Shown: positions 2,497 through 59,167 of the stretch, piece after piece
Position numbering within the stretch: the stretch's first letter is position 1
Layout: every line of letters starts with the position of its first letter
Notes under the pieces: model-generated
Seen by the model: only the letters and a program-made list of their open reading frames with translations
Told to the model about the DNA's origin: nothing
Databases searched by the model: none
Source of the DNA: Escherichia phage EJP2
Length of the DNA: 64,000 nucleotides
Strand: one strand, 5' to 3'
Sequence record: OQ411014.1
Program-made: the position numbers and the translations under genes

Positions 2497-5800
<3,304 letters not shown>

Positions 5801-5817
5801 ATATAATTATAATATAA

Positions 5818-7147
<1,330 letters not shown>

Positions 7148-7164
7148 GAGATAAATTCACTTTT

Positions 7165-7175
7165 TGTGATATAAT
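7165..7175 (+). promoter_or_regulatory. extended -10 promoter TGTGATATAAT
   Basis: Exact copy of the recurrent motif; first of two tandem promoters upstream of the SSB gene. Confidence 0.5.
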
Positions 7176-7260
7176 AGATTTACCAGCTAGTCTGGTGAAG
7201 TAAAAGACTTGAGATTGTCTCTAAAAAATCTTAAAAAATTATTGAGCATTTCGAAAAGAA

Positions 7261-7271
7261 TGTGATATAAT
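7261..7271 (+). promoter_or_regulatory. extended -10 promoter TGTGATATAAT
   Basis: Exact copy; second tandem promoter, about 95 nt upstream of the SSB start. Confidence 0.5.
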
Positions 7272-7277
7272 ATAAAC

Positions 7278-7313
7278 ATCAAGATGATACGGAAATAAAA
7301 CAACATCTTGATG
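7278..7313 (+). promoter_or_regulatory. 5' UTR hairpin (perfect 10-bp inverted repeat) in the SSB leader
   Basis: CATCAAGATG (7278-7287) pairs with CATCTTGATG (7304-7313), 16-nt loop, followed by an A-rich stretch up to the RBS. Confidence 0.4.
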
Positions 7314-7364
7314 GTAACAAAGAAACCTAATATAAACCAAGAAACAACGTAAAGGAATACAAAT

Positions 7365-8426
7365 ATGAAATCTCTAGCTGAAATTCGTGCTCAACTACAA
7401 GCTCAAGAAGAAAAAGCCACCGCAATCAAAAACGGTACTTTTACTGGTGAACGTAAAGCTGACGCTTTCCTAGCTTTCTGGAACATCCCAGAGAACACTC
7501 CACTAAATCTACGTTTTCTACCAGATGCGGATGAGAACAACCCATTCTTCTGGCGTGAACGTGACATGATTACACTTGAGTTCAACGGTATCGTTGGTAT
7601 GCACTCTGATAAAGTACGTGTTCAAGTACCATGTAATGAAATGTGGGTTCCAAAATCCTGTCCTGTAACTAACGAACTACGTAAGTGGTACGAAGTTGCT
7701 AAAGAGACTGGTGATGAAGCTCTAAAACAACAAGCAAGCAAATACTGGAAAAAGAAATCCTATCTACTACAATGCTTTATCGCTCCTGATTCTGTAGCTG
7801 TAAAGGATGATATCGCTCCAGAAAACCCAATCCGTCGCGTTCTAGTGAATAAAGAGATTTTCAGTAAAATCACTTCTATTCTAATGAACCCAGGCATCAA
7901 AGAAATGCCAGTTCACTATGAAGGTGGTCGTGACTTTGGTGTAGTAAAAACTAAAAACGGTGGTGGCTTCAACCAGTACAATATGTCCCAGTTCTCCATG
8001 TCTGAGCGTCCATTGAATACTGCTGAACGTGCTGCAATCGAAACATACGGTCTATTCGACCTAGGCGAATTCATGCCAAAACAACCAACTCCTGAAGAAC
8101 TACAAGCAATTGCTGAAATGTTCGAAGCATCAGTTGATGGCAAACCATATGACCCTGCACGTTGGGCTTTCGCTTACCGTCCAGCAGGTGTTCAAAAACC
8201 AACTAGCGGTGCACCTTTTACTCCAGCACCACAACAAGCTCCTACTACTCCTGCTCCACAAGCACCAGTACAGGAAAGTGTTCAACAACCTGCTCCACAG
8301 GCTCCAGTACAACAACCTGTACAACAGCCAGTACAAACTCCAGTAACTCCTGTTACTCCAGCGGCATCTACCGCTCCAGTATCAGCAGCAGATTTGGTTG
8401 CTCGTCTAAAGATGCAAAACAAATAA
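7365..8426 (+). CDS. single-stranded DNA-binding protein (T4 gp32-like)
   Basis: LRFLPDADENNPFF matches the gp32 IRFLPSKNDEQAPF region from memory; Cys pairs suited to a zinc site; Pro/Gln-rich acidic-tail-like C-terminus; sits next to the UvsX-like gene. Confidence 0.8.
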   Translation: MKSLAEIRAQLQAQEEKATAIKNGTFTGERKADAFLAFWNIPENTPLNLRFLPDADENNPFFWRERDMITLEFNGIVGMHSDKVRVQVPCNEMWVPKSCPVTNELRKWYEVAKETGDEALKQQASKYWKKKSYLLQCFIAPDSVAVKDDIAPENPIRRVLVNKEIFSKITSILMNPGIKEMPVHYEGGRDFGVVKTKNGGGFNQYNMSQFSMSERPLNTAERAAIETYGLFDLGEFMPKQPTPEELQAIAEMFEASVDGKPYDPARWAFAYRPAGVQKPTSGAPFTPAPQQAPTTPAPQAPVQESVQQPAPQAPVQQPVQQPVQTPVTPVTPAASTAPVSAADLVARLKMQNK

Positions 8427-8468
8427 TCTGAAGTTGAAGTAAGTAGTAAAGGTAGTATAATAGATAAA

Positions 8469-8496
8469 GGGGCAAAGGATTTGCCCCAATTTTATT
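8469..8496 (+). terminator. hairpin plus U-tract in the leader of the recombinase gene
   Basis: GGGGCAAA-GGA-TTTGCCCC then AATTTTATT; GTAGTATAAT -10-like element just upstream at 8451-8461. Confidence 0.5.
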
Positions 8497-8511
8497 CATG
8501 GAGAAGAATAT

Positions 8512-9630
8512 ATGAAAATGACATCTGGTTTCGCTAACATCCTAAAAAGCAGTACTGCATCTGTAAAGAAAAACTCTGGCGTTAGTATGGGCTTCCATGA
8601 TCCTGACACTTGGGTTAGTACTGGTAACTTAGCATTGAACTACCGTATCAGTGGAGACTTTCGTAAAGGTATCCCACTAGGCAAAGTAACTATGTTTGCT
8701 GGTGAATCTGGTTCTGGTAAATCATTTATCGTTAGTGGAAACATTGCTCGTGAAGCACAACAACAAGGTATCTTCGTAGTACTAATTGACTCCGAAAACG
8801 CATTGGATAGTGATTGGCTTCGTGCTCTAGGTGTTGATACTTCTGAAGAAAAACTTCTAAAAATGAACATGGGTATGATTGGCGACGTTGCTAAATTCAC
8901 TTATGACTTCATTGAAGGTTATCGTAAAGAGTATGAAAACGTTCCACGTGAAGAACGTCAAAAAGTACTGTTCATCATTGACTCTATCGGTATGTTGAAT
9001 ACTGAAATTGCTAATGACCAAATGAAAGCTGGTACTATGAAAGGTGACATGGGTCACAAACCAAAACAACTAAAAGCGTACATCACTAACTGTGTGAACT
9101 CTTTAGGTGCATTGAATATGGGTATGGTCTGTGTAAACCACAGTTACGAATCCCAAGACATGTTCAACCCTGACCCAAAAATCAGTGGTGGTTCTGGTCT
9201 AGTATATGCATCCTCAATCGTAGTTGCGATGGGTAAACTAAAATTGAAAGAAGACCAAGATGGTAACAAAACATCTGATGTGAGCGGTATCCGTTCAAAA
9301 TGTAAAGTCATGAAGACTCGTTACAACAAACCATTTGAAGACGTAGAAATCAAAATCCCTTACGAGCGTGGCATGGACCCACTAAGTGGACTATTTGATA
9401 TGTTCCTCAAATACGAACTACTAACCAAATCCGGTAACCGTTATATGTATGTTGATATCGATACTGGTGAACAAATCCTCATGTTTGAAAAAGCATGGCG
9501 TCAAAATACAAACAAATCGCTTGAACTAGTAATGGAACAGTTCAATCGCCATCCTAATATCTCTCCTATCCTAGAAGATGATAAAGGTGATGAATCCTTT
9601 GGTGATGATATCCCAGACACTGAAGAGTAA
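8512..9630 (+). CDS. uvsX: RecA-family recombinase (UvsX-like)
   Basis: Walker A GESGSGKSF, RecA-like core, acidic C-terminus. Confidence 0.9.
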   Translation: MKMTSGFANILKSSTASVKKNSGVSMGFHDPDTWVSTGNLALNYRISGDFRKGIPLGKVTMFAGESGSGKSFIVSGNIAREAQQQGIFVVLIDSENALDSDWLRALGVDTSEEKLLKMNMGMIGDVAKFTYDFIEGYRKEYENVPREERQKVLFIIDSIGMLNTEIANDQMKAGTMKGDMGHKPKQLKAYITNCVNSLGALNMGMVCVNHSYESQDMFNPDPKISGGSGLVYASSIVVAMGKLKLKEDQDGNKTSDVSGIRSKCKVMKTRYNKPFEDVEIKIPYERGMDPLSGLFDMFLKYELLTKSGNRYMYVDIDTGEQILMFEKAWRQNTNKSLELVMEQFNRHPNISPILEDDKGDESFGDDIPDTEE

Positions 9631-58378: not shown

Positions 58379-58389
58379 TGTGATATAAT
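58379..58389 (+). promoter_or_regulatory. extended -10 promoter TGTGATATAAT
   Basis: Exact motif copy directly after the stop at 58363; would drive transcription into the ORF-poor region. Confidence 0.5.
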
Positions 58390-58395
58390 CCTAAT

Positions 58396-58930
58396 ACAAT
58401 ACCAGTCCTTCGGGCGATACGTTCCCAGATTCGAAAAGTAGATGATGGATGAGCATGATGGTACATGCGAGTGCAGAGATACCCGTACGCGGCGTTTACG
58501 GCACGTTAAAGGAGCTTTTAGGCAGATAGGCTCCCTAGATAGGTAAACTGAAGGTCAACTTCACCATAATGCTAAGGGAGGCTCATATGAGCCACATGTA
58601 CGTTTGATCGAATAGACTGTACATGAAGTGGGCTAAGACCCCGACCGTTGCACATGACTGTGATAGAGAGAAACAGAGCAACCCGCTTTCGTTTCCTGAC
58701 CATTTTAGTACGGGTAAGTTGTATCTAAAATTCAGGAAAATTCACAATTCGATAATTCCGATGCTACCAGCGTCAGATTTAACATCCCCCCGTGGGGGAT
58801 GAAAATACCTCATCAAACCTCGTCAGGATATAAAGTACTAAAAGTGAATTGAGTTACGATAGTAACGAAAATTCTTTGACAATCGTAAGATTGGCGAATC
58901 AGAACCTTTACAACAATACAGGAATGAAGT
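58396..58930 (+). ncRNA. candidate structured non-coding RNA or long regulated leader (function unknown)
   Basis: About 535 nt with no ORF of 60 aa or more on the plus strand; about 52% GC in 58401-58500 by hand count; many short helices (CC-UUCG-GG, CATGTAC/GTACATG, CATCCCC/GGGGATG); boundaries approximate. Confidence 0.35.
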
Positions 58931-59167
58931 ATGATAACAGCAATATGTGAAATGGCTGACCAAGCCAGTGGTATAAAAGATGTTAGATTGATAGAAAACA
59001 CATTACAAGCTATGCAAGATTATGAAGACTATTGTGATGATCAGATCATGTGTGGTTTGGGTTTTTGTGTATATTTCTTTGATACCGAGAAAGATATGAA
59101 AGGCTGGTCAGAAGATGATGTATATGAGTTTATGCGTATTAACGCTCACTTGGAGATTGAAGTATGA
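58931..59167 (+). CDS. hypothetical small Cys-containing protein
   Basis: Track ORF; ATGA-type overlap with the downstream hydrolase gene. Confidence 0.45.
   Translation: MITAICEMADQASGIKDVRLIENTLQAMQDYEDYCDDQIMCGLGFCVYFFDTEKDMKGWSEDDVYEFMRINAHLEIEV

Follow-up and report, generated by a model that had tools for sequence, protein, structure and literature searches.

We suggest that the leader of the gp32-like SSB gene is best explained as a dedicated control region of that gene. Its layout, consisting of tandem promoters, hairpins at the predicted +1 positions, an open tail, short sequence boxes and a Shine-Dalgarno (SD) mini-hairpin, is kept in 17/17 sampled lineages of the clade; these include Hallingskeid, Munch/fENko-Kae01, A4, 121Q, BF17, JNE01, RaK2, XaC1, GAP32, CBB, XbC2, Kaldavass, Yen9-04 and two IMG/VR contigs. 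Beyond the first description of the region, which had been made from sequence alone, the comparative data add predicted +1 hairpins on every promoter, boxes that are conserved across the clade, and an SD mini-hairpin that covaries. In the literature we found no earlier description of this leader in jumbo phages.

Genome setting and anatomy of the SSB leader

The window, by which we mean the whole 64-kb stretch of DNA that was analysed, comes from a jumbo myovirus of the RaK2/121Q type. Megablast of window positions 6900-8600 matched 51 phage records of 310-386 kb, the closest match being Erwinia phage Hallingskeid (~80%). The gene order terminase, virion protein, SSB, UvsX and UvsY is identical in relatives, and the genes that neighbour the SSB leader are on the + strand throughout. 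The features of the region are as follows.

3164-5800: large terminase
5833-7125: virion structural protein
7119-7146, + strand: intrinsic terminator of the upstream virion-protein gene (GGGGTGAAGTATTTCACCCC, then a T-run), from the terminator scan and the sequence
7146-7175, + strand: promoter P1, with -35 TGGAGA (7146-7151), an 18-nt spacer and TGTGATATAAT (7165-7175); predicted +1 at about A7182
7180-7198, + strand: 5'-terminal stem-loop of the P1 transcript, core ACCAG/CTGGT (7182-7196) plus an A-U and a G.U pair
7205-7220, + strand: weak second hairpin AGAC(8 nt)GTCT, with a counterpart in Hallingskeid and in the fENko-Kae01/Munch lineage
7221-7241, + strand: UP-element-like A-tract CTAAAAAATCTTAAAAAATTA upstream of the P2 -35, kept in the nearest relatives
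7242-7271, + strand: promoter P2, with -35 TTGAGC (7242-7247), an 18-nt spacer and TGTGATATAAT (7261-7271); predicted +1 at A7278
7277-7313, + strand: 5'-terminal stem-loop of the P2 transcript, 10 perfect bp (7277-7286/7304-7313) and a 17-nt loop
7314-7364, + strand: structure-free A-rich tract, 51 nt to the start codon, from composition and folding
7316-7326, + strand: box 1, AACAAAGAAAC, the distal copy (-48)
7335-7345, + strand: box 2, AACCAAGAAAC, the proximal copy (-29)
7349-7360, + strand: SD mini-hairpin GTA / AAGGAA / TAC, a 3-bp stem (G7349-C7360) with the SD in a 6-nt loop
7365-8426, + strand: gp32-like SSB gene, 353 aa, from Pfam and BLASTP
8512-9630: UvsX-like recombinase, with a UvsY-like protein next in order

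The terminator at 7119-7146 shields the SSB leader from upstream transcription. The ORF at 7365-8426 had been called a gp32-like SSB gene, and database searches identify its product as a gp32 homologue, with a Pfam gp32 score of 27.4 bits (cutoff 26.8) and a BLASTP alignment to T4 gp32 at 25% identity over 221 aa (E = 8e-7). The N-terminal sequence KSxAE[IL]xAQ aligns to the cooperativity segment of T4 gp32, and the T4 'LAST' motif KRKST is cut down to KS. At the C-terminus (8180-8426), a low-complexity tail of ~80 aa, rich in Pro, Gln, Val and Ala and ending in AADLVARLKMQNK, stands in place of the acidic domain of T4 gp32. As a separate observation on this gene block, the large-terminase ORF at 3164-5800 encodes 878 aa vs about 445-545 aa annotated in relatives, and, because the extra segment has LAGLIDADG-like motifs, this suggests that the segment is an intein with a homing endonuclease.

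Two identical extended -10 promoters about 95 bp apart had been proposed to precede the gene, and both are found: TGTGATATAAT, that is TGn followed by TATAAT, occurs at 7165-7175 and at 7261-7271, 96 bp from start to start. The +1 was set at the seventh nucleotide after the -10 hexamer, and all start sites given here are thus predicted. TGTGATATAAT is a genome-wide promoter motif and the phage's own signature, with 10 exact copies in the 64-kb window, on the + strand only, and with 13 matches vs 3.8 expected in the window when one mismatch is allowed; common to the TGTGATATAAT promoters of the window is a TTGAGAyA -35 box at 17-18 nt spacing. Given 10 sites in 64 kb, two random copies would fall within 100 bp with p ~0.14; despite this modest figure for chance pairing, the pairing is present in every relative. 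Among the same-class promoters of the window, the tandem arrangement occurs at the SSB gene only, and the two SSB leaders are 87 and 183 nt long vs about 18-44 nt behind the others. Each of the SSB leaders of the 17 clade lineages has two same-class promoters (JNE01 has three), with the proximal one 71-111 nt before the ATG in all lineages and with a distal equivalent of P1 in all relatives.

The -35 box differs between lineages. Among the SSB leaders, those of 121Q, Munch and Hallingskeid have TGGGACA, that of RaK2 has TGAACAA, and those of GAP32, CBB, XbC2 and XaC1 have TGAAACG or TGGAACG, with TGAAATG also present in the GAP32/CBB pair. For CBB and GAP32, 'divergent RpoD-like' promoters with a classic -10, a -35 TGAAACG and an UP-like element have been predicted, and these sit before DNA-synthesis genes (PMC5259590). 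The SSB promoters of the window fit this class by their extended -10, lineage-specific -35 and UP-like A-tract; shared with it are the (extended) -10, the non-canonical -35, the A-tract and the DNA-metabolism genes downstream, and the GAP32/CBB SSB leaders themselves hold two such promoters. They differ from it in that the -35 of the window is TTGAGAyA, unlike that of relatives, and in that a tandem arrangement and leader RNA features are absent from the published descriptions of the class. The SSB promoters are members of this phage-specific 'divergent RpoD-like' class, not plain host-type sites. The -35 box varies by lineage while sigma70 is near-identical among the hosts, which are Enterobacterales, and we therefore infer that a phage-encoded factor reads the lineage-specific -35 box.

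Two further elements were noted near these promoters in the GAP32/CBB/XbC2/Kaldavass lineage, namely an inverted repeat CCACAA..TTGTGG in the P2 spacer that overlaps the extended -10, and a T4-late-like TATAAATA/CTAAATA just upstream of the P1 -35. At the matching relative place (7150-7157) the window has GATAAATT; the late motif described for these phages is ATAAATA (PMC5259590). The T4-late-like motif near P1 may be a third, late promoter that feeds the SSB leader.

Predicted 5' hairpins, open tract and SD mini-hairpin

For the proximal transcript a perfect 10-bp stem at 7278-7313 had been noted. The stem is indeed perfect over 10 bp, but it starts one base further 5', at 7277, with CATCAAGATG (7277-7286) paired with CATCTTGATG (7304-7313). 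The P2 hairpin has a dG of -11.9 kcal/mol and a z of -2.0 in its 109-nt context, and the first 45 nt of the P2 transcript reach a z of -5.1; the 64 kb contain only 7 distinct perfect hairpins with a stem of 10 bp or more (loop 3-20) vs ~1.9 expected. Each tandem promoter has its own +1 hairpin, that of P1 lying ~180 nt from the RBS.

Because the 5' part of the whole-clade alignment is unalignable, the hairpins were assessed by folding each lineage separately, with shuffles and same-class control promoters, and by subgroup alignments. Pairing begins 0-6 nt from the predicted +1 in 35/35 promoter entries scored from 16 lineages. Across the SSB leaders the first 45 nt fold with a median dG of -8.9 kcal/mol and a median z of -2.3, vs -3.25 and +0.16 for a further 12 promoters of the same class in the window (Mann-Whitney p ~1e-6, for lineages that are related and hence not independent). 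When all 12 clade leaders were aligned and folded together with MAFFT/RNAalifold, the SD mini-hairpin was the sole structure to emerge, with no consensus 5' hairpin, and the Mimasvirus/Eneladusvirus subgroup alignment does yield a consensus 5' hairpin. Between lineages, identity in the hairpin region is just 45-63% and folding is retained. In several relatives, G.U pairs on the + strand occur within the distal-promoter hairpins, which favours an RNA structure over a duplex-DNA site.

Several other readings of the hairpin region were considered and set aside. The P2 hairpin is no candidate terminator for P1 transcripts, having no U-run and an AU-rich stem. In the MFE fold the P1 5' end pairs over 7 bp with SSB codons 3-6 (CAGCUAG/CUAGCUG), and we treat this pairing as chance because the P1 hairpin sequence differs in relatives. 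The 4-codon ATG..TAA in the P2 hairpin loop (7284-7298) is not conserved. An Rfam scan of 7000-8600 gave no match at gathering score, the best being ctRNA_pND324 on the minus strand (31.7 vs 45 bits).

A side observation concerns SD-like purine runs within the 5' hairpins: CAGGAAG in GAP32, CAAGGAG in XbC2, UAGGAAGGAAG in RaK2, GAGGUGAU in the P1 hairpin of 121Q, GGAGG in the P1 hairpins of A4 and JNE01, and CGGAAAU in the loop in the window. At least one SD-like 4-mer is present within the first 40 nt in 14/15 lineages vs 9.4 expected, a mild enrichment. Such runs may dock 30S subunits or mimic the SD hairpin with its AAGGAA loop.

Downstream of the P2 hairpin, an A-rich unstructured stretch up to the RBS had been described, in agreement with the composition and folding of 7314-7364 (59% A, MFE 0.0, mean unpaired probability 0.81). 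The A content is at the 99.93rd percentile of all 51-nt windows and the G+T content (25%) at the 0.3rd, and an MFE of 0.0 is shared by 0.6% of 51-nt windows. In the 17 lineages the tail measures 30-60 nt (median 52), with 45-64% A and an MFE no lower than -3.5, and it holds one or two copies of ACAAAGAARC, the proximal box at -26 to -35 in 17/17 lineages and the distal one at about -45 to -53. Within the 64 kb the paired boxes occur in no other leader or place, other exact matches all lying within coding regions, and there are 0 exact box complements on the minus strand of the window. Identity to relatives is 69-94% over the 35 nt that precede the ATG vs 54-72% at four-fold degenerate sites of the SSB gene, an excess which indicates that purifying selection acts on the box/RBS segment.

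The SD mini-hairpin has a stem of 3-5 bp across the clade, with the compensatory variants GTA/TAC, GAT/ATC, ATC/GAT and ATA/TAT. Its stem cells are paired in 83% of cases vs 55% in shuffles and 15-40% in slid controls, double-change cells number 15 vs 5.1 expected, and RNAalifold also predicts the structure in the Mimasvirus group.

Scanning IMG/VR with the SSB identified 78 more distant loci at 39-50% amino-acid identity, to which Phosso, PA5oct and Atu_ph07 were added from GenBank. In the 48 non-redundant distant leaders a recurring pattern is seen, in which a promoter region with a T4-late-like ATAAATA is followed a few nt later by a strong hairpin, then by an open stretch of 30-55 nt in which clade-specific boxes recur, and then by the SD; examples of the boxes are UAGGCAC/AAGGCA/AUGGCA, and UUAGCACAA in Atu_ph07. 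In the one distant subgroup that is alignable, RNAalifold gives an 11-bp helix with compensatory changes in 5/11 pairs and several U.G pairs. Because the 48 distant leaders repeat the design, the order of 5' hairpin, open repeats and RBS is, on this comparative evidence, a deep feature of the SSB gene family and not something particular to the window.

Comparison with the T4 gene 32 operator and possible functions of the leader

The T4 operator consists of a pseudoknot of ~28 nt followed by >40 nt of less structured RNA that carries UUAAA/UAAA repeats and includes the RBS; the pseudoknot is where gp32 nucleates, and cooperative spreading follows from there (PMC535899; PMC3014915). RNase E cuts all T4 gene 32 mRNAs at -71, just 5' of the structure, and the gene 32 messages are the most stable T4 mRNAs (PMC3014915). 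The operator of T4/T2/RB69 is likewise a leader element of a gp32-family SSB gene that is fed, as in the window, by several promoters, and it shares with the window the order of a 5' folded element, 40-50 nt of open RNA (~57-59% A), short repeats and RBS; the T4 gene 32 leader that we examined combines a 7-bp stem with a tail of 40 nt that is 57% A. In RB69, a possible small SD hairpin (U-8 to A-21) has been noted too (PMC535899; PMC3014915).

The sequence-only reading had likened the window leader to this operator. The likeness holds for the structured 5' element, the open A-rich tract and the RBS, but it does not extend to the pseudoknot or to the UUAAA repeats. An open tract that takes in the RBS is present, and at 51 nt (MFE 0.0, unpaired probability 0.81) it exceeds the 40 nt that define the T4 type. 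T4 has an H-type pseudoknot of ~28 nt where the window has a simple 10-bp hairpin with a 17-nt loop; in a search of the P2 loop against its flanks the best complementarity was 4-5 bp, from which no pseudoknot could be drawn, and the leader hairpins of relatives are simple or bipartite stems with no pseudoknot. The T4 repeats are UUAAA/UAAA and those of the window ACAAAGAARC, with only two incidental UAAA in the window tract; the T4 tract is A+U-rich and that of the window A+C-rich. Moreover, the T4 5' end arises from RNase E cleavage whereas that of the window is predicted directly from the promoter, and T4 gp32 has a KRKST motif and an acidic C-terminus, both of which the window SSB lacks. 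Because no pseudoknot can be drawn and the repeats differ, the window leader is T4-operator-like in design and not a strict member of the T4 operator family. For RB49 a recognisable pseudoknot is reported to be absent (PMC535899, PMC3014915), which implies that autoregulation need not be universal.

If +1 is at the seventh nucleotide after the -10 hexamer (A7182 and A7278), the window leader would share with ompA-type stabilisers and with the stabilising leader of T4 gene 32 mRNA a stem-loop that starts within 0-2 nt of the predicted 5' end of each transcript; a stabiliser of this type calls for a start no more than about 2-4 nt from the RNA 5' end. Such a stem-loop at the RNA 5' end is reportedly the geometry that Emory, Bouvet and Belasco found in 1992 to be required of 5'-terminal stabilisers. 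The hosts of the closest relatives are Enterobacterales, in which the RNase E/RppH decay pathway operates. The hairpins of the window differ from ompA-type stabilisers in being gene-specific and in being repeated behind each tandem promoter.

Combining these data, we tentatively suggest, with a confidence that falls just short of even, that the leader joins a T4-like autogenous operator to protection of the mRNA 5' end. In this model, two tandem promoters of the phage's sigma70-like class would drive the SSB gene, and each transcript would open with a stem-loop that shields the mRNA against decay that depends on the 5' end (RppH/RNase E). Trimming of P1 transcripts may occur in the AU-rich stretch just before the P2 hairpin, as modelled on RNase E cleavage at -71 of T4 gene 32 mRNA, and would give them the same 5' end as P2 transcripts. 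The mature mRNA would then consist of the hairpin, 51 nt of open A-rich RNA with two ACAAAGAAAC boxes, and the SD in a weak mini-hairpin. SSB in excess of the available ssDNA would load cooperatively on the open tract, with the hairpin bounding or nucleating the loading and the boxes contributing specificity, and the bound SSB would hide the RBS and in that way repress its own translation, as modelled on gp32 of T4 and RB69.

This model draws on the rarity of the anatomy, its specificity to the SSB gene, its conservation and the covariation of the SD hairpin, on the identity of the protein as a gp32 homologue with KSxAE[IL]xAQ on the T4 cooperativity segment, and on the T4 precedent of a 5' structure followed by >40 nt of unstructured repeat RNA that includes the RBS. 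It is weakened by the missing pseudoknot, by a repeat that is not UUAAA and a tract that is A+C-rich, by the reduction of KRKST to KS and the replacement of the acidic C-terminus by a Pro/Gln/Val-rich tail, and by the example of RB49, which has no recognisable pseudoknot (PMC535899, PMC3014915). In addition, gp32 proteins bind with little sequence preference; set beside the conservation of a 10-nt box, this makes recognition by another sequence-specific factor or by the ribosome/S1 possible. The comparative data nevertheless leave autoregulation better grounded than before, and we regard it as plausible.

As the main alternative, the leader could serve high expression with no feedback, the tandem promoters, ompA-type 5' stabilisers and an A-rich tract with boxes that act in ribosome (S1) loading or as an enhancer together supplying a protein that is needed in stoichiometric amounts; we consider this possible but would sooner argue against it than for it. 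In its favour, every promoter, the distal one or two included, has a hairpin 0-6 nt from the predicted +1. Feedback has no need of a distal hairpin ~180 nt from the RBS and such a hairpin is not needed for SSB nucleation, whereas mRNA 5'-end protection predicts it, and distal +1 hairpins are thus more naturally explained by a leader built for expression. The extremely A-rich and unstructured tail, the SD-like purine runs in 14/15 lineages vs 9.4 expected, and the unusual stability of T4 gene 32 mRNA itself (PMC3014915) point in the same direction. Composition does not, however, require the sequence of a 10-11-nt box to be conserved at a fixed distance from the ATG, the paired boxes are missing from all other leaders of the window, and the covarying SD mini-hairpin suggests an initiation that is controlled rather than maximal.

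The same boxes and hairpin could instead be an operator for another factor, such as a RegA-like repressor, a RegB-like endonuclease or a small RNA that reads the boxes and/or the hairpin with its AAGGAA loop. T4 applies RegA and RegB to early mRNAs (PMC3014915), and the conservation of the boxes in sequence and at fixed positions, the SD within a covarying hairpin loop and the recurrence of SD-like motifs in or near 5' hairpin loops would all suit such a factor. Yet the 64 kb hold no second leader with paired boxes, so that the regulon here would be a single gene, no regulator candidate was found, and exact box complements on the minus strand of the window number 0; we judge this explanation improbable. 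A DNA-level element or a minus-strand feature (a duplex operator downstream of P2, a small minus-strand ORF or an antisense RNA) is the least credible reading by far. In its favour are minus-strand ORFs of 33-39 aa that overlap the leader, an annotated minus-strand hypothetical CDS at the same place in Hallingskeid, and the sub-threshold Rfam match to ctRNA_pND324 on the minus strand (31.7 vs 45 bits). Against it, hairpin foldability is kept and sequence is not, the + strand G.U pairs in relatives and in the distant helix would be A.C on the other strand, the nearby genes are all on the + strand, and the minus-strand ORFs share only a 9-aa patch that the conserved A-tract explains, are impossible in the shorter leaders of 121Q/A4 and have no protein-level conservation.

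Wider implications and other features of the window

Self-limitation of gp32 is a textbook case of translational autoregulation, and T4 and RB69 are, to our knowledge, the sole phages for which it has been demonstrated. Should the leader prove to be an operator with 5' protection, dozens of natural operator variants, with different folded elements and repeats in the same geometry, would be available in the RaK2/121Q clade and among its metagenomic relatives, and what a 'non-specific' SSB recognises would become testable; a 2010 review of T4 calls for more study in diverse relatives (PMC3014915). The unit of promoter, 5' hairpin and open leader would in addition be a compact and portable cassette for high expression and stability, and the promoter class and predicted start sites improve the annotation of poorly annotated 350-kb genomes.

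A broader and rather unlikely proposition is that gp32 genes across jumbo and T4-related phages have a large undescribed family of riboregulatory leaders, in which the hairpin and the clade-specific boxes would form a sequence-specific operator that co-evolves with the SSB or with a dedicated partner. If this were true, the boxes of the family would comprise ACAAAGAARC in the present clade, UAGGCA/AUGGCA in metagenomic relatives and, for Atu_ph07 and T4, UUAGCACAA and UUAAA respectively. The mini-hairpin with its AAGGAA loop at the RBS would be a second recognition element, and T4, with its pseudoknot operator, would represent a specialised form of a design that is both general and ancient.

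Some features of the window outside the leader deserve mention. The 8-bp palindrome CAGTACTG occurs in 54 copies in the 64 kb vs ~0.8 expected from base composition, for example at 1423, 2087, 5385, 8550, 27927, 43591 and 56984, and AGTACT occurs in 200 copies in the window vs 21 expected. Copies of CAGTACTG fall in two reading frames (29 in one and 19 in the other), which argues for a motif at the DNA level and not for a codon artefact. One copy of TGTGATATAAT, at 58379-58389, stands at the head of ~780 nt (58379-59163) that contain no ORF of at least 80 aa, are G+C-richer by eye and have G+C-rich hairpins such as CCCCCCGTGGGGG; in this segment no tRNA and no Rfam match at E <= 1 was found, and the segment could encode a non-coding RNA or a group of tiny genes. 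Finally, the terminator hairpin of the SSB gene, GGGGCAAAGGATTTGCCCC (8469-8487; region 8453-8495), is kept in all lineages examined. In the window it is directly preceded by a -10 TAGTATAAT, which is missing from most relatives and by which a UvsX transcript would carry the same hairpin at its 5' end.
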